DNA of 61,463 nt, the filler included, from Hausera hauseri (Eukaryota): NCBI GenBank assembly GCA_046269625.1. It is 11 parts of 11 records of this genome, joined end to end, with 100 filler letters (N's around TTAATTAATTAA, not from the genome) between each part and the next. Parts side by side here need not be neighbours in the genome. Positions count along the whole stretch, not along the records: positions 4,917 to 11,267 come from JBJURY010109098.1; 10 more parts are not named here. One strand, given 5' to 3'. Below the pieces are notes generated by a model that made no database searches, was not told the origin of the DNA, and worked only from the letters and a program-made list of their open reading frames with translations. The translations under genes were made by a program, and so were the position numbers. How positions within the stretch are numbered: the first letter of the stretch is position 1; every line of letters begins with the position of its first letter. This document shows positions 4,917-53,000 of the stretch, piece by piece.

Positions 4917-6480
4917 TGTTGCTGCATCTTTTTAATATCCAAAATACCTGCAACGCTCAAGGTTTGTAAAAATTTTACCTTTGTCTTTGTCATTTTTGCT
5001 CCCACATGTCTAGTTTGGCATTAAGCACATAGAGCTTCCGCTATCCGAGATACTCCGTCTGCGTTTGTATGTTCACTGCCTCGACGAAACTGCAGCTGAA
5101 AATTGAAGGTGGCCATATCTTTAACCCATGACTGGAATTGTGGACTTAAAGGTTTTGTCGATTGAGTCATGAACACCAAAGCCTTATGATCTGTGCGGGA
5201 TACGAACTGATTCCCATACAAATGATGTTTGAAGTGTAGCATAAACGCCCGTAGTGCGAGAAACTTCTCCTTAGTTACACAGTATCCCTTCTCATGGTCA
5301 TTCAGTGTCCTGGAACCATATGCCACAACACGTTCGGTTCCGTCATCTTGTAATTGACTAAGAACGCCTTCTATAGCTGAAAAACTCGCATTTGTGTCGA
5401 GGATCATGGGTCGGTCCGTGTTTGGAAAACATAAAACTGGAGTCGTTGTCAATTGTTGTTTCAATTCTTTGAAGCTGGCTTGACACTCTTTTGACCAGTG
5501 GAAATTATCTTTAGCTTTCGTGGTTGCATACAGTGGCGCCGCAATCTGAGCAAAATCTTTGATAAACCTTTTATAATAATTTTCTAAGCCTAAGAATGAT
5601 TGTAACTGAGTGACACATCTTGGAGAGGGTGCTTCTCGAATTTTGACAATCTTGTAATTATTGTTTTCTACGCCGTCTCCACTTACCATATGCCCCAGGA
5701 ACTGAACTTTCGATTGTTTCAGATAACATTTTTCTGGTTTAATCTTCATCCCTACTTCAGCAATTTTCTGGAATACTTTCTCTAAACGGAAGTCATGCTC
5801 GATATTCGTCTTTCCGTAAACCAATATATCACCCAGGTATACTATAACCCCTTTATACAGCATTCCCTCAAAACTTATGTGTATCAGTCTTTGAAACGTC
5901 GCAGAAGTCGTGCATAACCCAAACGGCAATCGATTAAAATAGAACTGACCCATCTTTGTGCTAAACGCTGTCTTCACTTGAGGTTTCTGTTAACTCTACC
6001 TGATAGTATGCGTTGCCGAGGTCTATTCTTCAAAAGACTGTCGCACATTGTAAAGCATCCAAGAGTCCATAAATATCCGGAACTGGAAACGTAAACTTCT
6101 TAGTAAGTGCGTTCAACTTCCTAAAGTTCATGCACATGTGAATGGACCCGTCTTTTTAGGTATTACCACAAGTGGTGTATTCCAATGGCTTTGGCATGTC
6201 CTAATTGTGGTGCCAACGGCGGCCAGTGCCCTTTGGCCTATTTGGTCCGGCGCGGCCGGGCGTCCGTTGCCGTCGCGTCGGGCCCATAGTCGGGCCCGAT
6301 TTTCCGCCTCTAAATCGACTGTCAAGAAAAACGCATGTACTATAAGTAATCGTTGTGGTGCCCGAATCGAATGTTTGCCCTCTGGCCCATTCGATTGGGC
6401 ACGGCCGGGTTTTCCGCTGCCGACGCGTCAGGCACATAGGCAGGTCCTGATTTTCTGCCATGAAAATGAAACCCCACACT
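4917..6480 (-). mobile_element. Ty3/Gypsy pol fragment (RT + RNase H), frameshifted
   Basis: WNTPLVVIPKK, then IDLGNAYYQV, KTAF...RLPFGL, YLGDIL (YLDD mutated), FLGH, FLGL.NYY, and RNase H TNAS/TDHKAL/NADGVSR. The main ORF is 5021-5977. Confidence 0.92.
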
Positions 6481-7877
6481 ATTGAGGAAGATCTTTTATT
6501 ACCAGCTATGAAGAAAGTCGTTGAAATTAAGAGTGACCCAAAGGAGGTGGCAAATGCCTAATGCTTTGCCGTCGTCCGGCGGTGCAGTTCAAAGAAGGAT
6601 TGACTATATGTCGGCTGATGTTGTTGCTAAGATTGTCTCTAGAATTTCAGCCTCCCAATATTCTTAATACGATCAGTGGCTTTTGTCCGTTATAATTCGG
6701 AGAATGTTTTCTGTTCTAAAAACCGTTCCCCATTCATGTCGATGCCAAGATATGTTTCAGCTGCTTTACTTGTGTTGTTAAAAGAAGTTTGATTTATATT
6801 AGTCGAACGATTTCGAAAAATCTATCACAATCCATTGCTGCTGTAACAACTTCAAAAATAATTAACAGTTATACTTCAATCATTTTGTACCAAACCATTG
6901 TTGTCCTTTTCAATAATTGTCACACCAAATTTTTCCTTATACACAAAACAATATTTTTATTTAGTCTACTAATTTTAAACTCTTTCTCTTAATTATGGAG
7001 AGCCTTTTTATTTATGAATGAAGGTTAATAGAGCTAGTCACTAATTTAATTAATGAGATGAGTCTGACGGCTCTGCTCCCGACAGCCCAAGGATACTCTG
7101 GTCAAAATGTTACAAGCTCCGTCGAAAGGCCTGTACTCTTATTACCCAATACGTGCAAATATTCTATTCCTCTCACAAAGCAAACTATAGACTGGAACGA
7201 TAGTCTCAATGACGTGTACCACCAGTCTGTACCCGACGAACGGCCAAGTTCTGCACGATAACTGAGGAATCACCAACTTAAGAGCCCACTTAAAAGTTAC
7301 AAAAAGTCAACCACTCAGTATTTTACCAATCACTGCCTTTATAAAATTATTACTTTTAACTGGATTTGGCTGTTCTCTGAATTGTCCAAATCTCAGTTAA
7401 GGATCAGTCAAATTTAGTTCTCAAACAATATATTTTAGGGCTCGTCTAAATAATTTACAAAACGAACAGTTATGACAATTATGGGTTAAGAAAAAGAGAA
7501 GATAAAAGAAAAACCCACTTTATCAATAATACTCGTCAATTGGAGAGCCCGTTCTTAATCGTTCTTTGTTAAGCTTTCGTAAACCATCAATAGTAGCGTT
7601 AGCAAAAAGAACACAACTCTATATATTTATTCTACTATTCTTTTTTGTTTTACCATCAGTATATATATTTGACTCGATGAAGGAAATTAATTATCGTCTA
7701 GACAGTACACAAAAAATCCATTAATCTACACAAAGAAAATCAAAAAAAAAGTCTGAGACATCCATTATCCGCAACACAAGGGGGGATCATAGTTAGCGCC
7801 TTCCACTGGCGTGATAATGTCAAGGAAAATAATGTCGTACCAAAGCAAAGGTAATCATATCATACGGAATGTTATAG

Positions 7878-9614
7878 TTAAGGAGAATCAAGGATAATCT
7901 GATCGGTCCAAGCAGAAAAATCAGCACTGTCCTTCGGTAGATTACATGCCGCGGCAACCGCGGCCTGTTGGTGAAATGAATTGAGGGGCAAGGTATCCAT
8001 TTGCGGGTCATCGGCGTCAGTTGGTACTAATGGACGATGAAAAGAAGGGTTTATGGGTGGGTTTTCTAATAGGGAGAATTGCGACCAGTCACAGTGGGGT
8101 ATAGAGGTAAGGGGTTTATAGGGTAATTTTGTAGTAAGGGTGGGTAAAAATTGGGGACGCCAGGGAGTAAGTAGATCACTAGAATGGCGTCTTTCTTTGT
8201 ATACATCGTGGGCTATCAGAATCATATACTCAGCATTCATTTTCCCTGGAATATAATACTCAAAGGATTTATACAATCTATTAAAGGGAACGATGCCATT
8301 TTTGGTATGATTAAGATCAATGGCACCCAGTAATACGGTGTACGGCACACGCCAAAGGGTAAGGAAAAAGTGGGGGTCAAAGGTTATTAAAATTCTGCCG
8401 TATAATGCACGGTACACGTGAGCCCTAACAAGTGCAAAATCTGGGGCATAGTCTAGGTCATCCAGGGATACACCGTGACAATGTTTATCTACGTTGTCTA
8501 TCTTTTCCCTGGGTTTTACATACGTTTTATACCTAATATTGAGAGCCTCATCAGGGTCTGTAAGGAGGTCTGCTAGGTAAATTTGAACGATTAAGGGGAG
8601 ATTTCCGGAGAAGGATAGTGTGTATCCAGCGAAAAGAAGGTCCCGAATCATATAGGAATTAGGGATTCGAACATATGAATGTACAAATTGGTGTGGAGGT
8701 TGTGGAAGCCAATCTAATTCATTCAAGGGCAGTCCACTATCAGGGGAGGTATCCAAATATTGTCTCCAGGGCGGGTTGTCAGCATATTCTAACTCAAAAA
8801 ACAATAGAGATGCCTCTCTTATCGAAATAGAGATCGAGTCCGAAGACCAAACATCCGTCTTTAAAATTACGGATCTATAAGAAGATAGATATAATTTAAA
8901 TTTTGGAAGAGGGTTTTTATGAATTTCAATAACTACAGATCCGAGAGCTACGGTCAGTAAAAGGTCTTTAGGCTGTGTGGGAAAGTTCAAAATCGAAAAT
9001 TGCTGTTGTATAAGTTGATATAGGGGATGCGGTCCATAACAATGTAACCAGTGCGATATTAATATACAACGATCTTGCAAACTATTTCCTTTATACCTAT
9101 TAGGGATTGTAAATACAGAGGGGAATTTAGTGATTGTATGACGAAGCGAAGTGTTCATGCGTAAGGACCTATATGTAGAGCGGGAACGCAAGACCTCGCT
9201 GATAAAAGGAATACACGACCGATTTGGTAAATACAGGGGTATAAGAGGCATTTGCTGTAAGGAGGAAAACTGTAATCCTGGTCCTAAATTTCGAATTGGT
9301 GGAGATTGATCTAAGAGGTGAGATATGCCGGGGGGAGATAACACATTAGGGGGTTGAAGTGTTAGGGGTGATTGAATATCCGACGCGGTTATGTCAACGG
9401 ACGCCATTTCGATTTCGATCCGAATAGTAGATTGCATCCAAACCTCAGCATGTGATAAATCTGATTCTCGGGGAAATTGTAATTTTGCATTGTCGCAATC
9501 TGAGATCGGAGTTATTTGATTATTGGTGTTGGTAGAAGTCACTAAAAAATAAAAGTGGGTTTGAGAAGTATACGCCCGCACCTGAAAGTGATAGGTCGTG
9601 GCAATTCTTAATTG
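7878..9614 (-). CDS. Intact orphan ORF (~570 codons) in frame with and 3' of the env-like ORF of a Gypsy element; function unknown
   Basis: Stop-free from 9614 to 7878. Separated from the upstream ORF only by the TGA at 9615-9617. Pro-rich N- and C-termini; no motif recognised. Confidence 0.75.
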   Translation of the reverse strand, partial: QLRIATTYHFQVRAYTSQTHFYFLVTSTNTNNQITPISDCDNAKLQFPRESDLSHAEVWMQSTIRIEIEMASVDITASDIQSPLTLQPPNVLSPPGISHLLDQSPPIRNLGPGLQFSSLQQMPLIPLYLPNRSCIPFISEVLRSRSTYRSLRMNTSLRHTITKFPSVFTIPNRYKGNSLQDRCILISHWLHCYGPHPLYQLIQQQFSILNFPTQPKDLLLTVALGSVVIEIHKNPLPKFKLYLSSYRSVILKTDVWSSDSISISIREASLLFFELEYADNPPWRQYLDTSPDSGLPLNELDWLPQPPHQFVHSYVRIPNSYMIRDLLFAGYTLSFSGNLPLIVQIYLADLLTDPDEALNIRYKTYVKPREKIDNVDKHCHGVSLDDLDYAPDFALVRAHVYRALYGRILITFDPHFFLTLWRVPYTVLLGAIDLNHTKNGIVPFNRLYKSFEYYIPGKMNAEYMILIAHDVYKERRHSSDLLTPWRPQFLPTLTTKLPYKPLTSIPHCDWSQFSLLENPPINPSFHRPLVPTDADDPQMDTLPLNSFHQQAAVAAACNLPKDSADFSAWTDQIILDSP

Positions 9615-11267
9615 TCATAAGATAATACTATAATTATCATTATCGTGTCTGTGGGCCAGTTCATCGGATACAAAGTAGTTCATATTAAAATTAATGTCAT
9701 TTTGTGGGATATTTTCATACTCATTAATATAGGTTGCATAATATATTTCGTTAGATCTTTTAAAATACATGGCGAGGGAGAGACATACTATGATTACTAT
9801 GCCTGAAATACTAATTACAACTACCCATAAATAAAAGAGGGCCAATGAGTTTTGTTTTGATTTTACAAATGCACTAGTTGTTGAGGCAGGTATATTGGAC
9901 AAGAAATAGGAGGCGAACTTTTGTTTCCAATTTGTATAATTTGTTACAAATAATATGGGCTTTTCCAGACGTTTAGACGTTACTAAACGTGTTATATTAC
10001 GTCTGTGTGTTGTTAAATTTGATAAAGATTGATTAGGTGTAAATTTGATTGTTGTAGCTAGGAGATCCATTTTCGTAGGGACTATACGCGAGTTTAACAT
10101 AGCAACTCTTGGTTTTATCCATGGTGATGACCTGGATGCAAATAAATGCTTTAAGTTTAGCGTAGTATTAATTATAATTCGACGTAAGGGATTTACCAAA
10201 ACTGTAAATTGGATCCTGCATACTGAAGGCCGAAAATGGATATCTTCTTTTTTTATTATTGTAAGCTGAGGCGGAGAGGGTCCAACAGACACCAACCAAT
10301 GTTTCCCTACATACATAGCATCCAGTACTGGAGGGCTCCATCGTGTTCGTAAAGCATCAATAGAAAAATAGGGGATTGCTTTCCACAAAAATGATCCTGA
10401 TGTAAATAAGGGTTGAATAGGGGGAATCACCCAATCATATATGAAATATATGTTTGTCTCGGATATTGGCATGGTAATTTTGACCCATGTCGATTTATTA
10501 TAGTATATTGGGAAACGTGGTATATCAAGAAACAATTTTGGGGTAATAGTCCGTTTAGTAAAATTTAATCTAATTTCTTCTATTTGCACTAAAACTCCAG
10601 ACTGGCCTTCAGTCCATAAATATTGATAAGCCAAAAATGGTTCTCTCAAAATTCGGAACGAAGGAGTTCGCAAAAGAGGTGTTTCCCATCTATCGATTAT
10701 TCTCATTGAATCTTGATCAAGTAAGGCGAAAGTTTGCTGCACTGTAGGTTTGTCCACTTGGTAAAAACATGCGCCTCCAGGCGACTCAATTGTACAGAGG
10801 CCAAGAAATTCTATTGACTGGTTGGTCCAAATGTGAAATATTAAAATTTTAACAGTGTTAGTCGTATGAGGAATATTTGTATGCAGATAGGTTATCTGAT
10901 TTTGATGTCTCCATCCCATGTGTATCGCTGGTCGACCTTCATAAGTTCCCAAACAACAAATTAAAGTAAAAATAAATGTTGCGTATGAAATACAATTTCC
11001 AGTTGGGGTAGAGTAGGTTGGTAGAGTAATATCTGTTACTTTTATTTTATCTTTCTTTTCATTTTCCTGTTGTTCTATCTCTGGATTTTTACTTTTCGAT
11101 ATGGGCGGAGAAGTTAATTTGCACCATTCTGCTGCTAGACAAACAATTTCGTTACGTTTACCTACTTTCTTTTTAATAAAAATATTGTTGTCTGTAACTC
11201 GTTCAACCTGATAGGGTCCCTTCCATGGACGAGTTAATTTAGGTGATAAACCTTTTTTTGTTACATG
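9615..11267 (-). CDS. Gypsy integrase C-terminus (GPY/F) fused in frame to an env-like type I membrane glycoprotein (5'-partial)
   Basis: From the contig edge: HVTKKGLSPKLTRPWKGPYQV (integrase GPY module), then a hydrophobic CISYATFIFTLICCLG, 105 codons with no stop before the listed 445-aa ORF. That ORF has 8 N-x-S/T sequons, a C-terminal TM (LALFYLWVVVISISGIVIIVCLSLAMYF) and a 48-aa tail. Confidence 0.8.
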   Translation of the reverse strand, partial: HVTKKGLSPKLTRPWKGPYQVERVTDNNIFIKKKVGKRNEIVCLAAEWCKLTSPPISKSKNPEIEQQENEKKDKIKVTDITLPTYSTPTGNCISYATFIFTLICCLGTYEGRPAIHMGWRHQNQITYLHTNIPHTTNTVKILIFHIWTNQSIEFLGLCTIESPGGACFYQVDKPTVQQTFALLDQDSMRIIDRWETPLLRTPSFRILREPFLAYQYLWTEGQSGVLVQIEEIRLNFTKRTITPKLFLDIPRFPIYYNKSTWVKITMPISETNIYFIYDWVIPPIQPLFTSGSFLWKAIPYFSIDALRTRWSPPVLDAMYVGKHWLVSVGPSPPQLTIIKKEDIHFRPSVCRIQFTVLVNPLRRIIINTTLNLKHLFASRSSPWIKPRVAMLNSRIVPTKMDLLATTIKFTPNQSLSNLTTHRRNITRLVTSKRLEKPILFVTNYTNWKQKFASYFLSNIPASTTSAFVKSKQNSLALFYLWVVVISISGIVIIVCLSLAMYFKRSNEIYYATYINEYENIPQNDINFNMNYFVSDELAHRHDNDNYSIIL

Positions 11268-11367
11268 NNNNNNNNNNNNNNNNNNNNNNNNNNNNNNNNN
11301 NNNNNNNNNNNTTAATTAATTAANNNNNNNNNNNNNNNNNNNNNNNNNNNNNNNNNNNNNNNNNNNN
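11268..11367. other. Artificial contig linker
   Basis: Same 100-bp N/TTAATTAATTAA linker. Confidence 0.98.
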
Positions 11368-12659: not shown

Positions 12660-15600
12660 AAATGTCCGCAATGTCCCATGTACTGCATCTCCCTCATAAA
12701 TGAGGGTGGAAAATGACACAAGGAAATTATCAAATATTATTCAGTAAACAAGGACACGTACCTGTGTTCCGCGTGTTTTATTCTAAACACATGCCCGTAC
12801 GCCGACTTTTATGAGATGCACAAGCATCATCTCGGTCCTTTCACGCGGGCCAAGAAATGATGCATATGCATTGCCACACATGCCCACGTTACTGTACTTG
12901 TAAGATGCACGGCGTTGATGGTTGTCATAGTGCAGTGGAGCGGTACTATGGTACAACAACGGTGCATGGTAAACGGGCCTATGTATGTCCCGGTTGTTCT
13001 ATAGTTGAGACGCAAATCAACTATGAACAATTCTACAACAACTATAAGGACTACTTAAACCAGTTTCAGAGGTCCTAAATGGAAATATTAATGGAAGCAG
13101 CAAGAAGCAGCAGCAGCAGGAAACGTCAAGCATCAGCAAACCTTGACGAATACTTTCAAAACAACAGAAGTATGAAACAGCAGCAGCAGGAATGTGAACC
13201 ACCCATTACTGCCAAGTACGACCTGAAGAGATCTTACGTGGACATAAAGGTGGACATGTCGGCGAAAATAGCAAAGCAATTAAGGATGTACCCGCTAATG
13301 TGCGTAACCGGTTGAAATCAGAGGTGGCCAAATTCCAACAAAACCACTGAAAAGTGCAATATTCAGCACTTGCAGAATTTGAAGATATTCAGGGTGACAG
13401 GAAACAATAGTACCTGTCACATAGCGCCGAACCGTATTCCGACGATTTTATTGCCGATGTAGGTGAAAAGATCGATGAAAAAATCGCCAACTACACGGAA
13501 AAGGGTAGTGGATTGCGAATTATAAAAATTGTCACTCTCGGCTTTATCATAACAAAGTCGAGTGATATAATTTACCTCTCCGGACGATCATTCATACCGA
13601 CACCTACAGATCTAAAGCAGTCTTATGCCGTAGTGAATGTAAAAAATACTGACGACGAATACTGTTTCATTTACAATATTCTTGCCGTGTTAAAATATGA
13701 CCAAGTGGAGAGACATAGTGCATATCGTCCAAATCAGTATCGGCAATATTTTTCCGAATTGGACTTTGACGAATGTTGGATGCCTATAAAACTGAAGACC
13801 ATTGCGACTTTTGAGCGGCGTAACCGGACAGTGTCAATTAACGTGTTCCGGTACAACACAATCATGGAAATACCGGTAGACGAAGAAATTTACAAGAACC
13901 CCATCTGGACGTAATTTATAGAAGTCGAAACCCGAATAGACGTCCAATAAATTTGTTGCTGTTAGAGAAAAAGGATTGAAAATTCCATTACGCGGCCGTG
14001 ACAAATGTGGACAGACTGCTGAACACGGAACATGACCCGTTTATCGAAAAAAGTATAACGTTGTAAATGGTGTCCTGCATGTCTGCATGGATTCAGGTTG
14101 GAAACAACATAAGAGAATCATGCGGCACTATGCAGACAAAATACATCGGGAACAACAATGTATGTAATGCCCGTCAAAAAGGAACTCAGGTTCACTGATT
14201 GGTCAAACACAGACAGTCCGGCATATGTAGTATATGCCGATATCGAAGATATCTTACCACGACACAACATATATGGCCAAGAACATGTTCCAATCGCCGT
14301 CGGTATGTTGGTTGTCCCAATAAAAACCGCAGGTCAACCACAATATTATATTTTTCATGGCTGGAACTGCGTAGGCGATTTCCTGCAGCATTTGGAAACA
14401 ATAGTAGAAACGGAAATCGCACCCTGGTACAGTAGAAATAGCAATAATCCTTTGATTTGGACAGATAAAGATGAACGTCTGACGTTTGCAGTCACAGATG
14501 AATGTTACCTGTGCCACAAAATATTGCCGTTTGATTCTCACGAACGGCTCGTAACGGATCACGATTATTTTACCGGTCGATATCTCGGAGCCGCGTGTAA
14601 TTCATGCAATTTGGCATGGCGTGTGCGGTCATTCCTACCGATGATATTTCATAAATTCAAGGTTTACGATTGTCGCCATATTTTGAAATGGTCAATAAAC
14701 GGATTTCCGCACTGGGTACTATCCGTAATTCCAACTACGGTGGATAAGTACCTGTCCTTGTCAGCACGCATAAACCGGTTCCAGGTACGATTCTTTGATT
14801 CATTGCAATTTCTCAATGAATCATTGGCAAAGCTGGTAAATGCCTTGTCACATGTGCCGCTAACATTCCCTGTACATATTGCGTGTAATAAAGGCATATT
14901 CCCGTACGAGTTTGCGATATCGTATAAGCTGCTCCAGACGACAGACGAATTACCACCGCAATGGCCCGGTATCACAGAAGAAGAATATCACAGAGCAGAG
15001 TCGTTTTGGCTGCAGAAACCTGTTGCAGTACATGCCTCAGTATCTGAAATTGGACGTGTACTTGTTAGCCGATGAGTTTCAGACATTTTCAGCTAAAGAG
15101 TTGGCACAAGATAGGTTGGAGCTACTCAACTTTCACTCAATACCAGGAATGAGTTAGGCATCAGCTCTGATATCATTGTATCGGGATGCCGAGCTATTGC
15201 CAGACCCGGAAATGTACTGGCTGTTTGATGTTGGTATTCGCGGCTACATGAAATTTGTAAACAAGCATCAGGTCAGTGCTATCGACACCACATCATTGCT
15301 GTATACTGATATTAATAACCTGTAAGGCTGGGCGCTTTCGCAACCCTTGCCGTACGGTTCATTTGAATGGGTAATCGACGGACAAGATCTGGACGACATA
15401 ATGGTCAATATGCCACTAGCAGACATGGCAGGCTCAGTCAGATACCTGATCGAGATCGATCTCGTGGTTTAAGATGAACTGCATGACGTTTTTGACGATT
15501 TTCCGGTCACACCATTTAACCAATGTCCACCAGGCTGAAAAGTGAAGAAACTGCTCATGACGCATGAACCGAAGCTGAATTACGTGATCCATTGGAATCT

Positions 15601-16109
15601 GACACAGTTCCACATGCAGTTGGGTGTACGCGTTACACAGCTGCATCGCGCAATCCAATTCGCGCAGGCTCTGACATTCAAGCCTTATATCAGTCTGAAT
15701 TAAAAAAAAAACGAGCTGCGGCTTGTACGAAGTTTGAAAAAGATTATTACAAACTGAAAAACAATTCTCTGTACGGGAAAACAGTAGAGAATCTGAAAAA
15801 GCGGCTTAATGTGCGCCTACGCAACTCGGAAAGTGGCTGGTTACATTTACCAGCAAGGCACAGTTTCAACAGTCAGTGAACATTGCCGATGGATTGGTTG
15901 AGGTGCTGCTGAACAGGAAAGAAGTCATTCTGGACCGGCCAAGTTACATAGGACAAGTGTTATTGGACCTGAGCAAGTTACGCATATATGAGCTGCAGTA
16001 TCGTGACTTGGCATGTTATCGGAACATGTTTGACGGCTGCAATATTGACATAATTGACGGCTGTAATAGTGACATAATTGGTAGTTTTTTCCTGCGTCTG
16101 AAAAACGTT
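12660..16109 (+). pseudogene. Maverick/Polinton protein-primed DNA polymerase B, family A, decayed and 3'-truncated
   Basis: GSG, NVKNTDDEYCF, exonuclease YADIE, endonuclease VII-like CYLC...DHDYFTGRYLGAACNSCN, KGIFPY, motif A DINNL, motif B KLKNNSLYGK. Many stops and frameshifts. Confidence 0.9.
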
Positions 16110-16368
16110 AAAGTTGATTCGTTAATTCACCGCGTACCTTTTCAACAGTATTAAAGTAATTTGTATTATACAATCGGTGAATGTACATTTGATTTAACAC
16201 AATAATTAGATTTTCCACAGAGCTGCAATCCGTTGTTGGTGTCATCAATGCTATTGACGCTAAATCTTTAAATTCCAAATCACCTGCTACTCTCTCAACT
16301 TGATCACTATCAAGTACTTGCCACCATAATACCAAGTCTGAAATTGATAATCCATGAAAGTTTTGCAA
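16108..16368 (-). CDS. Small hypothetical ORF downstream of an E2F/TATA-like promoter
   Basis: 86-aa ORF (TTG start in the track) with promoter-like motifs immediately upstream. No homology recognised. Confidence 0.3.
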   Translation of the reverse strand: MQNFHGLSISDLVLWWQVLDSDQVERVAGDLEFKDLASIALMTPTTDCSSVENLIIVLNQMYIHRLYNTNYFNTVEKVRGELTNQL

Positions 16369-16602: not shown

Positions 16603-19600
16603 AACTTCCCGAGGACCTTCTTGTTGGTAATTGAATAATTTGGATGATCCTTCGGATAGTCTGAGGTATCCATATACTGCGCCAATTTTGCATACTTTTC
16701 AAAGACATCATCTGTGCGAATATATTATATGAAACTGTCCGTGTCCATGTACATTATCTGGAGCTCCTTGAATCCGGGGACCATGAATTTGCAATGAAAA
16801 TTATATATCAAGTTCTTGGATAGATCCAATATGGACATGCCCACATATATAAGCTTGTTGAACTCAAGTGATGCCTTGAGCACATGGATGCTCACTAGAT
16901 TCTTTGTGTAGATTGTGCTGCTGTGGACATCGGGCTTAGCGATGAGTTTCTTTGTCCTCTTCCAATCACATACCAGCTCAATGTTTATTCGGTTCCGGAT
17001 ATTCTCCATAGTTGTGCCAAAGACCGAGTTGTTGTAAAGTTCGAATTGGTCCTTTTCAAACTCGTACTTGGTATTGGCCCACAAGTGGGTATTGAGATCT
17101 ATGTGTGGAGTCAGCCATTTTGACTAGATGAACTGCAGGGCCCGATGTATCCTGATGGCTTGGAGTCCATTTTGGATAGCCTGTTGGAAATTTATGTAGT
17201 GGACTACATATCTCTCTCTGTTTTCGAGGTGACAGAGCAGCTTCTTATGCTTTCCGTGGGGCGGAGGCCTGCTTTGCGGCAGAAATGGCAGCTGCTCATG
17301 CCTTGTGTGGATGCCATATGGGTATTCCATATCCACCTCCAGTATATAGCCTGTATATCCGGTGGGATCTATGTCCAATATTGGGATATCTTCAGGCTTC
17401 TCGACCCATTTGAAGTTATCATAGGGCAGTGGGTTGCTGGTATAGCGCAGCATCGCCGCCAAGTTCATTCCTGGAGCTGTAAAGAAATGGACTGGATCTA
17501 ACCTGTGGCTCTTAAGGGTCACATCGCTGAAGCTTCCGAAGACATCTGTAAGGAGCAGAACATCTGTGAGGAGATAGATATCACTGTATTCTCCTATTGT
17601 CATGAACTGGAAGGTTTGAAATACTTTATGGGCATGCTCATAGTCAGCATCGCTAATATGACTGGATGACAAATGACTATAAAAGTCCTCCTTGACCGGT
17701 AATGCTTCTTCATTCAGTGTTTCCCATGACGTTGTATAGTCTTAAGGGAACACGCCTTTCCTCTTGACGAGGTCAAATGCAGTGGGGAAGAATCGCTTTG
17801 TCTCCTTGAGTTCTTCTGCATGGAGGTTCATCAATAAACTATCCAGTGACGAGCACATTTAGCGAAAGCTGTCTATGAATCGAAGCTTGATGCGATCCAC
17901 ATGCTTGGAGAAAGTGATATATTTTTCCTCACTATTGAGAGTGACATCAGTGTTTCCTTCAATGTTAACCAATTCCCGAACAATGAAGTGGGAATCATAG
18001 TTATTGAGATTGTGGAACATTACAGGCATATATGTGCATGTTTTGCAGCAAAGATTGTAGCTGTTGCATGCTGCATTTCGATATGTGCCTGTAAAATGGC
18101 AATGACCCCTGACTTAATAATTATCCTTAGTGAAGAACTTGTCGCATAAGTAACATGTTGCTGCCTTGCACCATTCATCTTCTTGCTGCTTCGACATGAT
18201 CATTGTATCCTTATGCTGCTGAAGCATGTTTTCAAGCTTATGAACCGTGTCTTCTAATCTCTTCATAAAATGTGCTTCTGGGTCTGGCCCTCTGAATAGG
18301 AATGCTTCATTTCCAGTCCTTTGGCATACATACAATATGATGGGGTTCATGATATTGGTTTGTCGTTGTGCTCCTATGTTGGGGATTAGGGCTGCAGCTG
18401 TGAACTGGGCTGAGGATAGCCTCAAAATCACAATGGACAACAATCGGCACCTTCTGCATCTTTTCGAACTCCTTAAATTCCACGTAATCTTCCTTGGCGA
18501 ATTCTACTCGGATGCAGTAATTTGTATTACAGTAGGTCTTGTGCTCCTCCAGCTTTTCTGCGGCTGTGTTTCCATTACATAAATGAAGCATCTCTTGCAT
18601 ATTTCCATCATTGATTTATACTTGGATATTTGGGGCCCTACGAGGCGCTCAGAATTCTTGATCCAGATGAAATGCCTCTTTTCCCCATCAACTAGCAGGA
18701 GTAGATCCCTATGATCCTCCAGTTCCTCCTTGCACACATGTAATGGATAAAATTTGTCCTCCTCCAATCCGAAGATCTTGATTGAGATGTTCACGCTTTC
18801 GAATTTCACGACTTCATCTAGGCTTGACAGGAATGAAATACAGCTGAAGTCGCATGTGTGCTGCACTTTGTCATACATCCAAACTCGGGGAGCATTTTGT
18901 TGATCCTGGACTAGATTTGATAAAATGGCATACATGAAACACATGCTGTCATTATTATGAACATTGACACATGTTTTTTTCTTAACTATCCATTCAGGAA
19001 GCGGTATGTAGGACTTGCCTCTCATGGGAGAATACTTGTGCACATGCACAAGTAACCCCTTTATTGTTGTTAAAGTCCAACCGCTCTTTTGTCCTGGCTT
19101 TCTTCGGCTTCGCGGATGAGCCTTGTATAGTCCTATGTAATGAAATCCTTAATGTTAAAGGAATTTAGTAGTGGCCTGTTCTTTGTCTTGAAGGCCCTAT
19201 TAGACAACTCTCCTTTGACATTGGTGAAGGTGGCTTCTAATTTGAAGTTCACCTTAAGGGCCTTCAGTTGTCCTGGAGAATTCCTGCTGCCTCCTCCTTT
19301 GAATATTCCAGGAATTCATGGAACGATGTGTGCCCCACGGCTGCAGTAAAGTATCGCCGCACTTTGCTCTTCAGTGCAGCTGCATCAACAGGCCACTGTC
19401 TTTGACTTTTTGATGGAGCATCTACTGCTACTTCTAATGGGTGTTTTGTATCAGGCTTTGCTACCAAAGCCGTCTGTGCTGTCATTGCAAGCTGTGCTGC
19501 CAAAGCAGGCTGTGCTGTCATAGCAGGCTGCGCTTCCAAAGAAGGCTGTGCTGTCACAGTAGGCTGTGCTGCCAAAGCAGGCTGCGCTGCCAAAGCAGGA

Positions 19601-20132
19601 TGTTGCTCATTAAATATGACCTTCTTTGGCTGTGAATCGACGTCTGTTAAATGGGCAATATGATCTTTGTAAAATTGCATGTATTCTCCATCACATACCG
19701 TCTCACATCCTGGGCATATATAACAGATGACCCTATTAAATTTGTATCCATAATAGCTCTTCATGGCATTGTGGCAATTCTGAGGGTTGTGTATTACACA
19801 TGTGCAATACACATATGAACTGCACTTTTGGTTTTTCTTTGACACAAAAGACGTTATTGGCATATTGGTACTGAATATTTGTATTTTCGACTTGGCAAAA
19901 AAAATCAAGTGCTGTTTATGGACATTGTAAAATTCCTCGTACCCTGTCCTGCACACTACTTCTCATGTAGGGCATATATAATACTAAACTCTGTTGTACA
20001 TATGGCCAAAGTATTTCTTCATAACACTGTGGCAATTTTCCTGCTCGAGCAATTGAGGCAAACATTCACTGTAAAGTTTGCACATCTAAAATCAACCAAT
20101 TATTTGAGTAGCACAATTAAAAAACTCACCAT
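16603..20132 (-). pseudogene. Maverick/Polinton pPolB, family B, decayed (internal deletion removes motif A)
   Basis: SYIPLPEWI..KK..VNVHNNDSMCF, CDFEA (exo I), CYLC endonuclease VII-like region, YLLTDVLLL, LYNNSVFG (motif B), YMDTDSFI (motif C). LRYT is joined directly to SNPLPY at ~17440. Confidence 0.9.
19455..19605 (-). repeat. 18-bp coding minisatellite (AAQPAL-like hexapeptide, about 8 units) in the pPolB N-terminal linker
   Basis: PALAAQPALAAQPTVTAQPSLEAQPAMTAQPALAAQLAMTAQTAL in ORF 19264-19956. Confidence 0.85.
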
Positions 20133-31610: not shown

Positions 31611-31902
31611 AAACACGTTCGGTGGTGTCAGATCAAATCAGATACAGGCAATTCAATCTGGTCTGGATATTGTGACAATTATCTTTTGCACATTGTTTTA
31701 TTTCCGTTTTAATAATGTACTTTGTTCAGTGTCTTTTGTGTTTTGTTTTCGGTTACTTACTTAACCTGTTATTATTATTAAGTACCATATAAATAAAAGT
31801 AAAGCAATAACCTTGTACGAGGAAACAAAATATGTAACACGAATACATTTATTTATTGATCGGAAAAAAGCTAAAATCACAAAAATACACAAAGTAAGTC
31901 AG

Positions 31903-41143: not shown

Positions 41144-41374
41144 AGTAAAGCGCATGCATAGTCAGACAGCTCAGATAAAGACAGTTAGACCAGTACAATT
41201 TATAAACTATGACACTTGCTGTTATTTGACTTTGTGAATAATGTATATTTGTTCCACATATTTTGTTTTGTCTTTTTAATTTAACGTATTATTTTGTAAG
41301 GTATTTAATAAAAATAAAGAATTAAGAGAAAAGTAAAATCAATAATTTATGAATCACAAAACACAAAAGGCAAG

Positions 41375-43245: not shown

Positions 43246-44610
43246 AAGATAATTGCACCTCGAGTTAGAATTAAGGATACTTTTCCCGACGTTACTGGCA
43301 TTACTAAACCCCAACTCGAAAAAGGAAAAGATTTTTTGGAAATACAAGAAGATATCAGCCACTGTTTATATGGATACGTTGTTACTGGATTCCGAGTCCA
43401 CGAAGCACTAGAAAGATTAGGAATCAGACAGGAATATCTAGCCGGTATCCGAGAAATAAGCCGAAACCCCACTGTCGTGAGTCAAGTAGAAAACACCTTA
43501 ATGCGGAAAAGAAGATGTCTACTTCCCGTCTCAGCGTCGCCCGAATCGCAATTCAAGATGATGCTCGAAGCCACGAATGGCGAAGGATTCAAATTCCCGA
43601 AATTAATGAAGGCGAGTCAAGGAACCAAATATATTAAGAATGTTTATGACCATTTACGATGGGATCATGAATGGAAACCTAGAGATCCTATACAGAATGC
43701 GATGTCTGATAATAACTCCAAATCACTGATACAGAAATTTCGGAAGGGATTTAGTGAATATCCCGGTTATCGGAAAATAGAAAATCAAGGCACAAAACAA
43801 ATTCGAATAACGATACCAAATAATCCCAAAGGGAACTCGATCAGCCCGTTGGAGCCATCAACTAGTAAGGCTCGAGAAGAGCCAGAATCAAGGTCTGACA
43901 AGATGGATAACCCAAAGGGGCACAAGACAAAAATCTCTTTCCTAGAATACATTTACAAAAAGAGAAGTAAGACCAACAAAAGTCAAATCAATGAAAAAGG
44001 ATCAACAATAGATAACTCAATTTCGGAGGAACCCATAGACAATCAGAAAGGAATATCAAATCGAGAGAAAAGAAAAAGGACAGTGAAAAATCGTTGGAAA
44101 TTACAAGATTCGGGTCCTTTAAGTCAGAAGTCAATGTTCTTAGGAAGAACTGGGAGGAAGATACCCCGATTGTGGTTACAGAATTCGGTAAAGTACAAGA
44201 AAATTCTAATCATGGCTGAATATTACAGCAGAGGAAAAATCAAAGAGGCTGTATTTTATGTGTCCACCGTTCCAAGAAGAATAGTAAGTGGAAACGGATA
44301 TGCCAGAGAAGATCATACCATAGGCAGATACTTAGCCCCAATATTTCAATCAAAAAGTGGCACTAATAGGCTAACAATTCCCGTGGACACCCAAGTCAGA
44401 ATTCAGTTAAAAAGACAATATAAGAAAACTAGAATACCTGATCTGGACAAACAAGAAATAGTAGAATGGACCTTAGTAGCAGTATCTGACGATCCCAGAA
44501 AAAGTTCAGTAGACCCCAAGCAAAAGAGATTATACGGATATTTATATCACGACAGAAAAGGACTTGTGTTTGAAAGAATAGAAGTGGATGAGAATAATTG
44601 TGGACATTGA
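43246..44610 (+). CDS. Intact orphan accessory ORF in the 3' region of an LTR retrotransposon (probably 5'-partial)
   Basis: At least 424 aa, basic, with NLS-like clusters (KKRSK, REKRKR). Lies upstream of the RING ORF, PPT and LTR. No domain recognised. Confidence 0.65.
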   Translation, partial: KIIAPRVRIKDTFPDVTGITKPQLEKGKDFLEIQEDISHCLYGYVVTGFRVHEALERLGIRQEYLAGIREISRNPTVVSQVENTLMRKRRCLLPVSASPESQFKMMLEATNGEGFKFPKLMKASQGTKYIKNVYDHLRWDHEWKPRDPIQNAMSDNNSKSLIQKFRKGFSEYPGYRKIENQGTKQIRITIPNNPKGNSISPLEPSTSKAREEPESRSDKMDNPKGHKTKISFLEYIYKKRSKTNKSQINEKGSTIDNSISEEPIDNQKGISNREKRKRTVKNRWKLQDSGPLSQKSMFLGRTGRKIPRLWLQNSVKYKKILIMAEYYSRGKIKEAVFYVSTVPRRIVSGNGYAREDHTIGRYLAPIFQSKSGTNRLTIPVDTQVRIQLKRQYKKTRIPDLDKQEIVEWTLVAVSDDPRKSSVDPKQKRLYGYLYHDRKGLVFERIEVDENNCGH

Positions 44611-44998
44611 TGCTGCTGAAAAAGAAGAATGTCCTGTTTGCGATGCAAACCTATACCAAGGATTCGTAGTCTTAGATAACAAAGATTGCAGTCACAAGTA
44701 CTGTCGTTATTGCTTAGAAACGTGGACCCTGAAAAATGGGAAGACGACCTGCCCAGTATGTAGAGCCGAAGCCACAAGATTACGGTATTATTCGAACGGA
44801 GAAAATAAGAAGATAGTAGAGATATTTCCTGAAAGACCCAGTACGTCATACAATATTGACTCGCGATCCCCATCGAACGAAATAGATTCGGAAGCGGACT
44901 TACGCGGACGAATGGAACGATTACGTCAAATTCCCGGCACCTCTACTGACGCAATGGGCACATCCGAGAGTGCCGTTCAGGGAGGAGAAATGTCATAA
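44588..44998 (+). CDS. RING-finger (C3HC4) protein encoded at the 3' end of an LTR retrotransposon
   Basis: CPVC...CSHKYCRYCLETW...CPVCR. The ORF overlaps the upstream ORF by 23 nt, reads through the PPT and stops 8 nt inside the LTR. Confidence 0.82.
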   Translation: MRIIVDIDAAEKEECPVCDANLYQGFVVLDNKDCSHKYCRYCLETWTLKNGKTTCPVCRAEATRLRYYSNGENKKIVEIFPERPSTSYNIDSRSPSNEIDSEADLRGRMERLRQIPGTSTDAMGTSESAVQGGEMS

Positions 44999-47754: not shown

Positions 47755-47836
47755 AAACCACACCTGCCACTACCAAAATATAAACCACACCTGCCACTAC
47801 CAAATTATAAACCACACCTGCCACTACCAAAATATA
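47755..47836. repeat. 27-bp tandem repeat, three units, truncated by the contig end
   Basis: AAACCACACCTGCCACTACCAAAATAT with a period of exactly 27 bp, following a poly-A run. Confidence 0.9.
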
Positions 47837-47936: not shown

Positions 47937-50501
47937 CACGAAAGATAATAAAAGAAATGAGGGAAAACAAGATCATTCGACCAAGCTGTTCCCCCTGGAC
48001 GGCTCCTGTAGTAATGGTTAAGAAGAAGGATGGAATCATGAGATTTTGCATAGATAATCTAGCGTTAAATAAAATACCCGAAACGAATACATACCCATTG
48101 CCAAGAATTGACGAAATGCTAGACAGGCTCCACGGATCGACCATATTCTCAACGGTAGATTTACAGAAAGGCTATTGGCAAGTGGAGGTGAAAGAAGAAG
48201 ATAAACCAAAAACAGCATTTTCAATCGGAGAAGGATTATGGGAATTTAACAGGATGCCATTTGGGATAAACAATGGACCACCAGCATTCCAAATAGGAAC
48301 GGAACTCTTACTGTTAGACGCTCCACACGCCATGGTATATATGGATGATGTAATAATAGCATCATCAAATTTCCAACAACATTTAAAAGATCTGCAAGAT
48401 CTTTTCGATAGGCGTGAAATAATGGGTTTGAAGATAAACCCGAAGAAATGTTCATTTGCTCAAGCGGAAGTAGATTTTCGTGGACATAAAGAAGACAGAC
48501 AAGGCGCAAAGCCTCAAGACAAACTATTGGGGAAAATAAGAGATTTCCCAAAACCAACTACAGTTAAAGAACTACGCCGATTCTTAGGTTTGGCGAATTA
48601 CTATCGGATATTTATAAAGGATTTCAGCAAAATCGCAAAACCCTTATATAAACTATTGCGTGAAGACCTGGATATAGTAATTTGGACTAATGAGTGTCAG
48701 AGAGCGTTTAAATATTTAAAAGAAAGATTGCTAACTGCTCCTATCTTAATTTACTCCGATATGAGCAAGCCATTCATATTAGCCACAGATGCAAGCGATT
48801 ACGGAGTCGGAACAGTGTTGTCACAAAAAGGTGAAGACGGTAAGGAGTACCCAGTAGCTTATGCTTCACGGAAATTTAATAAACACCAAAAGAAATATGC
48901 AGTAATTGCAAAGGAGTTGTTGGCAGTAATATTTGCTCTAGAAGTATTTTCACCGTATATTAATGAGAACAAACCACTGTTGATATATACCAATCATTGA
49001 ACACTACAATGGCTGAAACAGCATGAAAATCCAAACAATTGATTATTACGATGGGCTCTTAAACTGCAACCCTATACATTAAATTTCCAGTATATACCTG
49101 GAACACGAAATGCCAACGCAGACTATTTATCCAAAATGACAAAAGATTCAAAAGTGAAAAAAGAGGAAATAGCAGCAGTCTGGAGCATGGATGGATCAGT
49201 AGAAAAGATCAAACAAAACCAACAGGAAGATCTCGAAATAAAAGTAATTAGAAATTTTATACAGAATAAGGTACTACCAACAAACAAAGAATTAGCCCGA
49301 CATCTAGCTCAATTTAGCGAAGAATATGAAAAAGATGGATTTTTGTATTACATCCACCAGGAGGGACCAGCATTAGTGATTCCAAAGAAGAATAGAACAG
49401 TTCTATTAACGCAATATCACGATGGATTACTCGGTGGACACCAATCAGCAAGGAAGACACTTAATGAGCTAAACGAAAATATTTCTGGCCCACTATGATG
49501 TAGGACGTACAAGAATGGTGTGAAAGTTGTAAATTATGCGCTACCCGGAAAAATACCGGATCAAAATTCAAAGCGCCTTTGAAGGTATGGGACAACCCCC
49601 CAGCACCATTCGAATTTACCGCAATGGATATAACGGGACCACTACTATTAACTCTGAATGGAAACAAATATATTTTAGTCTTCATTGACTATTTTACCAA
49701 ATGGGTTGTTGCCGTACCAATGACTGATATAAAGGCACGTACCATTGCTGAGAAGTTTGTCGAAAATATAGTATTTAATTACGGAGCCCCAAGAATTATT
49801 CCTACCGACCAAGCATCAAATTTAACCGGAACTGTAATGCAATCTATATACGATATATTGAAGATATTGAAGTTACGATCCACACCAGGACACCCAGAAA
49901 ATAACGGATTGGTTGAGAGGTATATTGGAGATCTGAAAGGAAAATTACAAACAGTAGTTAATACTAGACAAGACGATTGGGACGAATATGTTAACGCGTG
50001 TGTGTTCGTTAATCGAACGTCAGTACACAAAGCTACTAAAGAGACACCTTTTTATCTAATGTATTTACGGGTGCAAGATTACCAATTGACCTAGACTTTA
50101 ACGTGAGACCTGTCTCACACTTAATCGAAGTGGAAGATTATAAACAATTTATGCGGGAACACCTCTAATTAGCCTACAAAACGATTCGTGATAACCAGGA
50201 GGACTATAAATCAAAATGTAAAAGATAGTATGATAAGAAGACCAAGCAACCAAAAATTAAGATAGGCGACGAAGTAATGTTGTATACTCCGGCAATTAAA
50301 AAGGGTAAAACGTCTAAGTTGGATAGACCATATAAAGGGTCGTATGAGGTAGAGAAAGTGAATATACCGAACATCTGTTTGAAGAGAAATAATACGTCTG
50401 TGAAGATCCACGTTAACAAATGTAAACCAGCGGCCCGAGAAAGTGAGCTAAGGAAAGGTGAAAAGGAAGTGGTACTAAGTATTACTGAAAAGGTAAAATA
50501 G
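47937..50501 (+). mobile_element. Ty3/Gypsy pol (RT - RNase H - integrase), decayed
   Basis: SPWTAPVVMVKKKDG, DLQKGYWQ, RMPFG, YMDD; RNase H TDASDYG and ELLAV; integrase HHCC (HDGLLGGH...CKLC), D-D-E (MDITG, TDQA, VERY) and GPY-like YKGSYEV. Confidence 0.95.
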
Positions 50502-50519
50502 GAAAGTTCAACCCATAGA

Positions 50520-51916
50520 ATGTATTGGTTAATAGAGAGCCTACTATTAACAATCATCCTTTTACTTCCCCAAGTGGCCGGACAGATGAAAAATCAAGAG
50601 GTCGAACAAGTAAAAATACGGCACGCGATAGCTATAACAGAAGACCTGTTAATGAAGAACTTACAGTATAGAATAACTTATTCGGAAAGAGGTCAGAAGG
50701 TGGTAATCTGGAACATGCCGGGACGGATGCCCCTAAAATATATAATGGGAATATAAATAATACCGTGGCAGCAGGATATCAAAAGAAATTTGAACGAACG
50801 CCACTATAACTGTTTAATCCTCTCAGATACCAACCAAACCCGATGCGTAATACAAAGCTCAGGTGTTCATTATGTGTATCACACTCATAATATAGAGAAG
50901 GAGAGTACTATGCGAGTCAGAAAACAAAGTTCTACAGATCAATAGTAATTCCTATCAGACAACAAATGAACGAATCCCAACTAGATGAAATAATACTCAA
51001 TCAGTTAATAGCAAGACCAATGGGATTTAAAAGTGGAAGAAGTTGTATTGAGATAATAACCATGATACAATTGGACCAAATGGGAAGAATTACAATAAAA
51101 CTAGTGGAAACAGTTACACAGAAGTCAGAGTTTGTAGATTAAACGGTAAACGACAACGCGTGTTCTGTATGGTTACACGAGGAAAAATATATCATGTTCA
51201 TTATCTTTTATTTCGCAGGAGAAATGGTAAATTTGGATATCCATTAGAGCGAAAAGGACCCGTAATGTTTATAAGATATAAAAACCAGAAGGAATATAAT
51301 GATGTATAAGAAAAGATCACAACGCCATTCATGCAGTCCTCGGCTGGAAGGAGGGAAATAACCATTGGTAAAACCATATGCTTCCTATTATCGTGCAAAG
51401 CGATCCATATGGGATAATGTTACTATAGTAACAGCCCCTACCGCACTAATTATTTCTGTCAGACCAGATTTAGATTTCGTAAAAATTAAATTCAATTGCA
51501 AGAAACGAGATGTAAAGGTAACCAAAGGAGTCATAACTCCGGTTGATTTAGTAGTGCCATGTGCAGCTTTAGATCCCAATACTCGATATACGATAATCTT
51601 ACAATTACTAGATGATAGAGATAAGACAACTTCTATAAAAATAGTGTCAGCCATAACTACGGTAAGTCATGAAATAGGCGTATCTGATAAAATCAACATA
51701 GTTAGCAATATGATAACTACTAAACCCGTACGAGCTGTGTATAAATATTCTCGATTACAAATAATATGTATAGGATCACTAACCCCTATAATTTTCATAG
51801 TAATATTGAAAATAGTGGTTAGAATTTTATATTGGCAATGCAAAGAAAGAAGAAGCTGGATCAGAATTTATATGCGTAATCTAACGAACCCGTTAGATAC
51901 GGACAACCCCAGCTAA
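50520..51916 (+). pseudogene. Env-like type I membrane protein of the Gypsy element, in frame with integrase, decayed
   Basis: Signal peptide MYWLIESLLLTIILLLPQVAG begins 18 nt after the integrase TAG in the same frame. C-terminal TM LQIICIGSLTPIIFIVILKIVVRILYW with a basic tail. Internal stops and frameshifts. Confidence 0.7.
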
Positions 51917-53000
51917 CGATTAATGTCAGGGACTGCAATACACGCAACCCTAATTAAACCGATAACACAACAACATCGGATTATCTTGCACTTTGGAGAT
52001 AGTAATAGCATAACCACAACGATTACCTCCATAAGTTGTTTGACAACCGTTGTGTTGGTTGTAAGTATAGTTATAAATGACGTATTGACTCTTATGTTTA
52101 CAGTCTAAGCTGCAACGTTTCACCAGATACAATCTATTAACCGTTCCAAACATTTGTATAGCAACGTAAAGAATCACATAATAAATGCCAGTCCATCCAA
52201 CCAATACTATGTGTCGCACAATGACTATATGATTAGCTTGAACTACCCTCAGACTCAGCAAATCTCTAACAATCTGAAAGGGTATAGCATGGCCAATCGA
52301 TCTCTTGCCATAATGCAAATAACCAAAGCCACGTGATTTCTTTTGATTGATATAATCATTCTACCTTATCGATTGCATTCCATGAATTTATATGGTGTAG
52401 TGGGTGAAATTCAAATAAAAACAACAGATAGGAAAACATCCATCAGAGGAGATTTAATCAATGTCGATCCAGAGAATGGTCTTGCTTTTGACCACTCATT
52501 TCTTAATGACAACCTATTCAAAATTCGCTCTTGCACAAATCACGTGATACTAGCACTGGATATAATCAAGCACAAAAAATTTTACCCGAGCCTTCCAGAA
52601 GGAAGGTGTTTCAACCTCTCGGAACCGGATTACATCAAATATAAGAACATCCGTTTTCGAAGATTGGAAAAAATTACAGATAAAGACATGGTCATAGCAG
52701 CCGTCAATTTGGCCTATGACCAGTGGAATCAGTTTCAACCCATTGAAGCCTCGGTTCTAACCTTGAATGGAGATACTCTACTCTACGGAATCATCACCCC
52801 AAGGTAGCATATCATTAATTTCGATACGCGCATAACAGGCCTCGCAGAGTCTAACATTAACAACCAAATGGATCCAGTGGACTTTTATCGGAGAGTGACC
52901 GAAGCCATAACTGACAAGATTGTTATTGGAGCCGACGTGGTTGAAATGGTTATAAACCCTTTCAAATGTCCAATCTGACGGATTGCTGGAGTATGTGATA
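51917..53000 (+). pseudogene. Downstream orphan reading frame, in frame with the env-like ORF
   Basis: ORFs at 51923, 52154 and 52343 share one frame with 51365-51916 and are broken only by point stops. Confidence 0.6.

Follow-up and report, generated by a model that had tools for sequence, protein, structure and literature searches.

The closest described systems each resemble the locus reported here in one part of its layout. In bdelloid rotifers the LTR retrotransposons Juno and Vesta encode a DEDDy exonuclease as ORF3, a DnaQ-superfamily domain which lies downstream of pol and which, in the published description, is RNase D-like, keeps its catalytic residues intact, replaces env and has no transmembrane (TM) segment (PMC5408684). 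SIRE1 of soybean, a Ty1/copia element, has one stop separating pol from an env-like ORF, for which stop suppression is described (PMC2194720, PMC2829016). For retroelements, readthrough has been described where gag meets pol and where pol meets env, and the stop between the ORFs of Tca2 is reported to show no detectable readthrough in yeast. Type I readthrough, on a stop followed by CAR-YYA, is known from tobamoviruses and from coat-protein extensions of benyviruses and pomoviruses; natural cases are described mostly for UAG in plant viruses, and according to the same accounts CARYYA also functions after UGA and in animal cells (PMC3542737, PMC4132726, PMC13517186), with about 15% readthrough after UGA in a mammalian reporter (PMC4132726). 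A survey of metazoan errantiviruses whose env is of F type or gB type contains neither 'readthrough' nor 'exonuclease' in its main text (PMC13524379). In Cer1 of Caenorhabditis, a large env-position ORF lies within one polyprotein frame, but its product is described as spliced, is not Env and acts in RNA export (PMC10309623), which warns that an ORF in frame need not signify a Pol-Env polyprotein. Among pseudonucleases, Exuperantia and PML PXL are described as having lost metal-binding residues, and other dead DEDD domains as binding nucleic acid (PMC13659232).

The locus analysed here lies in a stretch of 61,463 nucleotides, filler included, from Hausera hauseri (the window), and is best read as a Gypsy-like retroelement's 3′ half (element 1), in which one frame holds an integrase tail, a predicted glycoprotein, a stop and a 578-residue extension. 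In contrast to the ORF3 described for Juno and Vesta, the domain in the extension is ISG20-like DEDDh and degenerate, and it is not stand-alone but in frame behind a predicted membrane glycoprotein and a leaky-type stop. Like SIRE1 as described, element 1 would be an LTR element in whose 3′ half a lone in-frame stop is read through, but its stop comes after the glycoprotein tail and would extend the glycoprotein, rather than lying between pol and env. The hexamer CAA UUA and the extension of a structural protein in a minor form recall the published type I cases, whereas here the stop is UGA, the genome is that of a retroelement and the protein extended would be a membrane protein. Like the errantiviruses in that survey, element 1 has a Ty3/gypsy-like pol followed by a signal, an ectodomain and a TM, all predicted, but no homology to F or gB was detected for it. 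The DEDDh fold is shared with the RNA-trimming enzyme ISG20, with ISG20L2 and with SDN1, and the apparent loss of metal-binding residues recalls Exuperantia and PXL as described; the domain differs from these in being encoded by a mobile element and in its predicted tether to a membrane.

The open frame and its internal stop

A single frame of 1130 codons runs on the minus strand from 11267 to 7878 with one internal stop, as an earlier note on this DNA had claimed for the 3390 nt, and its start coincides with the edge of the contig, next to the N gap 11268-11311. The probability of its being open by chance, from base composition, is 8e-18 and 1e-13 for the two halves, and the other two minus-strand frames contain 36-45 stops per half. 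The stop stands in the context TTA TGA CAA TTA, with TGA at 9617-9615 and an exact CARYYA hexamer following it (9609..9617). Since an exact CARYYA is rare after stop triplets (22 of 6532 in the background, 0.34%), we consider programmed readthrough of TGA CAA TTA, which would extend the glycoprotein with an ISG20-like domain, to be the best reading of this sequence, and we hold it with moderate confidence. SIRE1, too, reportedly uses CARYYA.

In sequencing run X1, an independent contig over 9536-9776 had no differences and left the TGA unchanged; an assembly error as its origin was therefore rejected. As X1 possibly comes from the source sample, this match bears on the assembly and not on conservation. 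The region 3′ of the stop formed no stem-loop better than shuffles (z -0.09 to -0.89), and a stimulatory stem-loop was accordingly discarded as evidence for readthrough. The sequence TTTCAG/GT at 9582 (phase 0), which had been put forward as a good splice acceptor, turned out not to be special, because it is one of 15 equally pyrimidine-rich AG acceptors in the frame; a further acceptor-like AG lies at 9542.

Over the glycoprotein half the depth of related copies in X1 was 300-2500, against 41. At least 80% identity of many relatives extended only to about 9528, where the depth fell from 313 to 72, and X1 variants lost similarity at 7876-7878, which is the downstream ORF's own end. In related contigs of both runs, X1 and X2, similarity broke over 10937-11115. 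Two X2 contigs span the stop, with no shared substitution at 9609-9617 and three shared substitutions 21-46 bases from the stop among the 40 of 1005 variants listed, and the order of these suggests that the stop may be conserved across copies. Synonymous changes made up 16 of these 40 listed variants, against a neutral 28% (P 0.07), an excess too small to demonstrate selection on the protein. Downstream of the ORF, in 7877-4917, no purine tract followed by TG was present and a 3′ LTR was not recognised; the contig, whose span would exclude a 5′ LTR, contains no long repeat.

The predicted glycoprotein and its nuclease-like extension

At its start the frame carries a C-terminal integrase module of GPY/F type (11118..11267, minus strand, residues 1-50), the remainder of pol being beyond the contig edge. 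Pfam returned no integrase match for this piece itself; the module was recognised from its motif and from its likeness to the integrase tail of a second element in the window (53% over 30 aa, E 4e-4), which bears out the earlier assignment. Neither a stop nor a Met intervenes between the integrase and a signal-peptide-like stretch (10947..10997, residues 91-107), and the first in-frame Met is residue 117. Signal and TM calls were made by hydropathy and glycosylation was predicted by a sequon scan. The hydrophobic core of the signal-like stretch (residues 96-106) reached an 11-residue hydropathy of 2.51 but not the 19-residue threshold. Following it are a predicted ectodomain of 367 aa with eight N-glycosylation sequons and three cysteines (9846..10946), a predicted TM helix at residues about 475-502 (9762..9845; 19-residue hydropathy 2.87) and a predicted 48-aa cytoplasmic tail with two Yxx-hydrophobic motifs (9618..9761), all on the minus strand, so that the glycosylated ectodomain, TM and tail proposed earlier are found as predictions. 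By hydropathy and sequons, then, element 1 has the signal, glycosylated ectodomain and C-terminal TM of an env-type layout.

The identity of this protein as Env is another matter. Sequence and profile searches gave no match to F or gB fusogens, and the cysteine set and furin consensus expected of an errantivirus env are absent from the ectodomain, which has no R-X-K/R-R and one minimal RxxR at residue 205. Residues 91-1129 found no relative by HMMER among 1.84 billion representative proteins. Homologues were likewise not found by word-index searches with each half and with the exonuclease region (confined to proteins of similar length), by scans of viral and metagenome contigs or by single-sequence PDB searches; no Pfam family matched either half or its sub-fragments, and an Atlas lead for the ectodomain reached only 0.81. 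Of the Pol-Env fusion claimed in the earlier note, the sequence supports a retroelement whose integrase tail shares its frame with a predicted type I membrane glycoprotein, for which Env is a putative label. As no relative is detectable among 1.84 billion proteins, the glycoprotein might be a novel entry protein or surface protein. We give about even odds to its release from a Pol polyprotein and to its translation from a spliced RNA.

After the TGA the frame continues as an ORF of 578 aa (7878..9614, minus strand), the first 59 codons of which lack Met, the first Met being ORF residue 60. This part had been taken for an orphan domain of about 570 aa; it proved instead to contain a predicted DEDDh exonuclease fold of ISG20/ISG20L2/SDN type (8331..8645, minus strand, perhaps reaching about 8190), as found by NCBIfam, DnaQ and PDB profile searches. 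With the whole ORF, the NCBIfam search gave five matches, all DnaQ-type (E 0.0044), and PHROGs matched the same fold. The DnaQ profile scored 14.7 bits, and the highest score among 1000 shuffles was 2.6. All eight matches of the PDB profile search were DEDDh proteins, ISG20L2 among them with E 7.4e-7, and this search is independent of the DnaQ alignment behind the AlphaFold model. That model aligned with ISG20 over 136 residues (Z 10.7, rmsd 4.8), a partly circular result because it was built on bacterial DnaQ sequences; single-sequence AlphaFold of the ORF gave a pLDDT of 31. Judged by these searches, the nearest relatives of the domain are ISG20 and ISG20L2.

The first-motif D-x-E is absent from the first strand in either register, and the second-motif aspartate is absent in ungapped registers and is kept in one profile alignment by opening a gap. 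The third motif (H, D) falls in a region of the model with pLDDT below 50. With its acidic catalytic residues mostly missing, the domain is predicted to be catalytically dead.

A second element and the competing explanations

Elsewhere in the window, at 47937..53000 on the plus strand, lies a decayed and highly diverged Gypsy element whose parts are arranged in the same way: RT, RNase H, integrase, signal-like stretch, ectodomain, TM, 26-aa tail, stop and ISG20-like domain. Its upstream ORFs match RVT_1, RT_RNaseH and rve in that order, and a stop and an ATG of its own lie between integrase and signal. The first stop after TM and tail (51914, plus strand) reads TAA CGA TTA, which has five of the six CARYYA bases; no other of the element's 11 stops comes within one mismatch of CARYYA (background 3.1%). 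Past it come an ATG at three codons and then a hydrophobic stretch, and the frame runs on through 361 codons with four stops where 23 would be expected (P 8e-7). An in-frame ISG20-like domain near 52679-52975 scored 12.0 bits, and the highest score among 500 shuffles was 6.1; it too lacks the D-x-E of the first motif and, in the ungapped register, the second aspartate. In pairwise comparison of the trimmed domains of the two elements, with bounds chosen by eye, 2 of 1000 shuffles were as good. The whole downstream ORFs gave no alignment above shuffles (z 0.1), the ectodomain pieces have no detectable similarity, and NCBIfam and Pfam searches with the domains of the second and a third element alone gave no exonuclease match. 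The same layout in so different an element makes occasional readthrough likely.

Four other explanations were weighed. It would be rather unlikely, in our view, that the stop is tight and the downstream ORF a separate accessory gene, expressed as a soluble pseudonuclease through reinitiation or through splicing to a subgenomic RNA. Acceptor-like AGs at 9582, 9542 and other positions and the ATG just past the second element's stop would suit such a gene, as do the published accounts of other LTR elements, in which third ORFs are expressed separately (the rotifer DEDDy ORF3s stand alone without a TM) and the in-frame 3′ ORF of Cer1 is expressed by splicing; it leaves unexplained, however, an ORF in the glycoprotein frame right past the stop, and an exact or near CARYYA, in both elements, and the acceptor at 9582 has 14 equals. 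In this copy, the TGA might also have arisen as a chance nonsense mutation within one long polyprotein comprising Pol, glycoprotein and pseudonuclease. CGA to TGA at CpG is a common change, a single substitution would turn any of 373 codons of the frame into a stop and the copy has no recognisable 3′ LTR; yet none of these 373 codons is followed by CARYYA, the stop of the second element occupies the corresponding structural position, and the two X2 contigs share no substitution at the stop among the variants listed, which leaves this account improbable. Hardly credible at all is a TGA read as sense, by an altered genetic code or as selenocysteine: open frame flanks it on either side, but the frame contains 23 TGG against this one TGA, and the contig has no SECIS-type match at E up to 1 (two weak snoRNA matches only), and on these grounds both were rejected.

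A further possibility, to which we give a slim chance, accepts readthrough as real but takes the membrane protein for a captured receptor-like protein, which either the element or its host would employ on the cell surface and whose extension would be a module for signalling or RNA sensing. The undetected fusogen homology, the few cysteines, the lack of a consensus furin site, the tyrosine motifs in the tail and the dissimilar ectodomain pieces of the two elements all fit this, but the position after integrase and the topology of signal, ectodomain, TM and tail are those of env genes, and the many X1 copies of the glycoprotein half are as expected for a gene of the element. Under programmed readthrough extending an element glycoprotein, which we prefer, most ribosomes would halt at the TGA and yield a short-tailed glycoprotein, and a minority would read through it, yielding a glycoprotein with the extension on the cytosolic face; as the stop directly follows the TM and tail, both products would be coherent. 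By analogy with other dead DEDD domains described as binding nucleic acid (PMC13659232), the likeliest role for the extension, though a tentative one, would be that of a membrane-anchored RNA-binding adaptor, holding or shielding element RNA at the membrane site of particle formation. Equally doubtful, though conceivable, is the wider picture of an undescribed enveloped Gypsy lineage in which the surface glycoprotein would be of a novel class and the leaky stop, of plant-virus type, would be conserved, and in which the minor glycoprotein form would carry a captured, disarmed ISG20-type antiviral nuclease at the inner membrane face, binding and shielding element RNA or acting as a decoy against host RNA defence.

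In the open-access papers searched we found no account of readthrough that lengthens a glycoprotein in the env position, and none of an LTR element with an ISG20-like pseudonuclease. If the preferred reading is true, it adds a recoding strategy and a class of accessory gene to invertebrate retroelements, suggests that a host nuclease fold was captured and later lost catalysis, and offers a natural case of UGA-CARYYA which is testable by a simple reporter.

A third element in the window

The 3′ part of a third element lies at 43246..44998 on the plus strand. Its first ORF starts inside the same DEDDh-like fold and is followed by a RING-finger ORF, and 3′ of these ORFs a purine tract and TG are present at 44979-44992. 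On this third contig, the DEDDh-like domain thus adjoins a RING gene.

The reading frame of element 1 and the domain beyond its stop

The window consists of 11 short contigs with N-padded linkers, and element 1, the Gypsy-like 3' half on the minus strand, sits in contig 4917-11267. As the earlier note had described, one minus-strand frame runs through 1130 codons from 11267 to 7878 with a single internal stop, a TGA at 9617-9615 followed by CAA TTA, and frame analysis bore out both this and the order of the domains. The frame starts with a GPY-type integrase tail, followed by a charged linker and a signal-like hydrophobic core of 11 residues. Next comes a predicted ectodomain, in which 8 sequons and 3 cysteines occur, and then a predicted TM helix and a tail of 48 residues; past the stop the frame holds another 578 codons. 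Both halves are open far beyond chance length (probabilities 8e-18 and 1e-13). The stretch was found in two sequencing runs, X1 and X2, neither of which is recorded as RNA, and since one X1 contig has 0 differences to the window across 9536-9776, the stop is genuinely present in the DNA. The glycoprotein occupies the env position but is not filed as env, because it shows neither the consensus furin site nor the conserved cysteine set of F-type env, and sequence searches detected no relatives of it.

The downstream ORF (7878-9614, minus strand), called an orphan domain in the earlier note, turned out to carry an ISG20-like DEDDh fold, with 320 residues before it and 100 after. The Atlas search offered exonucleases as leads, with scores below 0.9; all five NCBIfam families matched by the whole ORF were DnaQ-type (best E 0.0044), the one matched PHROGs family was an exonuclease subunit, and both phage tblastn matches lay on epsilon-like genes (E about 1). 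A DnaQ profile of 15 bacterial domains, a set seeded from one of these phage matches, gave the ORF 14.7 bits, while the highest-scoring of 1000 shuffles reached 2.6. When a profile of three window pieces alone was compared with PDB, 8/8 matches (E up to 10) were DEDDh nucleases, headed by ISG20L2 (7.4e-7), ISG20 (2.2e-4) and SDN1 (0.0042). Furthermore, a structure model built on the DnaQ alignment, which covers 167 residues, is confident over roughly 11-100 and is poor past 113, had ISG20L2 and ISG20 as its best Foldseek matches rather than the bacterial proteins behind its alignment; it matched the PolC exonuclease with VIA Z 11.1 (rmsd 4.6, 111 aligned) and ISG20 with VIA Z 10.7 (rmsd 4.8, 136 aligned). 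The D-x-E of the first motif was absent in every register examined, the second-motif aspartate was missing in ungapped registers and kept in one gapped register, and the third motif falls in a part of the model with pLDDT under 50; we infer a pseudonuclease. The rotifer LTR elements differ in that they are described as having an active-looking DEDDy exonuclease in a stand-alone third ORF without a TM (PMC5408684).

The layout in elements 2 and 3

Element 2 is a decayed Gypsy element on the plus strand of contig 47937-53000. Its RT, RNase H and integrase regions are followed by a signal-like stretch that shares the frame of the integrase, an ectodomain with a frameshift, a TM helix and a tail of 26 residues, after which comes TAA CGA TTA at 51914. 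Past this stop the frame continues for 361 codons with 4 stops against 23 expected, and arrives at the DEDDh-like fold seen in element 1, which scored 12.0 bits here where the highest of 500 shuffles reached 6.1. Among 11 stops across both examined frames, this TAA alone lies within one mismatch of the leaky-stop hexamer CARYYA (background 205/6532). A stop and an ATG of its own separate the integrase from the signal, and another ATG stands just past the post-tail stop; the extra stop and the ATGs count against a simple picture, and in so decayed an element either stop may have arisen afterwards by mutation.

The contig of element 3 (43246-47836, plus strand) carries the 3' end of that element and opens partway through the DEDDh-like fold (9.7 bits against 4.6), within a 454-aa ORF in the 43246-45500 region. 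An ORF at 44582-44998 that encodes a RING finger (zf-RING_2 in Pfam, E 2e-8) overlaps it, and a purine tract with TG at 44979 and an LTR-like start are also present, so that nuclease fold and RING are combined in an LTR element. In pairwise alignments of the trimmed domains of the three elements, 0, 1 and 2 of 1000 shuffles were equally good, and no similarity between the elements was detectable outside the integrase tail and the DEDDh-like domain. Given the second element, the layout looks like a lineage trait.

How the stop may be used

Of 6532 stop triplets across the window, 22 are followed by an exact CARYYA; in the frame of element 1, 373 codons are a single base change away from a stop, and not one of them precedes this hexamer, hence a chance nonsense mutation would seldom fall in such a context, and we regard a chance origin of the TGA as improbable. 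CARYYA is reported to promote readthrough at all three stops, without downstream structure and also in animal cells (PMC3542737, PMC4132726, PMC13517186), at about 15% after UGA in one reporter (PMC4132726); a hairpin 3' of the element 1 stop was no stronger than in shuffles. Reading the TGA as a sense codon would be most surprising, as the frame holds 23 TGG against 1 TGA and a code change is unlikely. The rare context, the known activity of CARYYA and the unlikelihood of a code change together favour, by a modest preference, low-level readthrough, in which ribosomes would at a low rate pass TGA CAA TTA and the extension would be joined to the glycoprotein on its cytosolic side. SIRE1 is described as having its readthrough stop between pol and env (PMC2194720, PMC2829016). 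A survey of metazoan errantiviruses reports F and gB envelopes, and its main text contains neither "readthrough" nor "exonuclease" (PMC13524379), and we found no report of the present combination in open-access literature.

A separately expressed gene in the downstream ORF is a less likely alternative; in Cer1, an in-frame 3' ORF can reportedly be produced by splicing (PMC10309623). It is doubtful that the membrane protein is a non-envelope, receptor-like protein. As no Met precedes the signal-like stretch in frame, the start of the glycoprotein would have to come from a Pol polyprotein or from a spliced leader, and acceptor-like AGs are present at 11135-11129. The Env function, the Pol fusion and the readthrough put forward in the earlier note stay predictions. 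Under the favoured readthrough, by analogy with dead DEDD domains described as binding nucleic acid (PMC13659232), the likeliest role of the extension would be that of an RNA-binding adaptor at the membrane.

Related copies and other content of the window

At 80% likeness the X1 depth, which as summed contig depth is by the tool's own warning not a copy number, was about 41-53 over 6900-7775, 55-104 across most of the downstream ORF, 313 near the stop, rising to 486-2550 across ectodomain and integrase tail. The glycoprotein half has many related contigs, the downstream half few. Over 9528-9673 the related contigs reached a depth of 392-568 just beyond the stop, at 9563-9588, against 152 for the tail at 9742-9745, and their depth dropped below position 9528; in many relatives, likeness to the extension may be confined to its first 30 codons. 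Variant similarity was interrupted in two places, the linker with the signal (10937-11115) and the last stop of the ORF (7876-7878). Two X2 contigs span the stop region, and among the 40 of 1005 variants listed, all of them differences common to every X2 contig at that position, none falls within 9609-9617 and three fall 21-46 bases beyond the hexamer, which hints that the stop is perhaps not private to this copy. Synonymous changes made up 16 of these 40 (28% expected, P 0.07) and none creates a stop. At 7816, 60 bases beyond the ORF end, the X1 contigs split, with a depth of 41 on one side and about 18 on the other, and the variants reunite at 7876-7878; the branching may mark two diverged alleles or an element boundary, and no PPT was seen at 7816-7878.

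The window is rich in eukaryotic mobile elements: it has Gypsy-type RT and integrase as well as repeated fragments of protein-primed DNA polymerase, a content that suggests an invertebrate host. Two repeat sets of 2-3 kb (12798-16111, 28662-31612, 38176-41149 and 59491-61463; 16603-19983, 23690-25791 and 34613-38058), 70-83% alike and with matches to protein-primed DNA polymerase B and endonuclease VII, are probably Polinton-like elements. Downstream of element 1 on the same strand, a decayed Gypsy RT and RNase H at 5021-6200, the RT having 40% identity to that of element 2, probably belongs to a different element. At 56378-56986 (minus strand) an ORF resembles, by eye, a Tc1/mariner transposase fragment.
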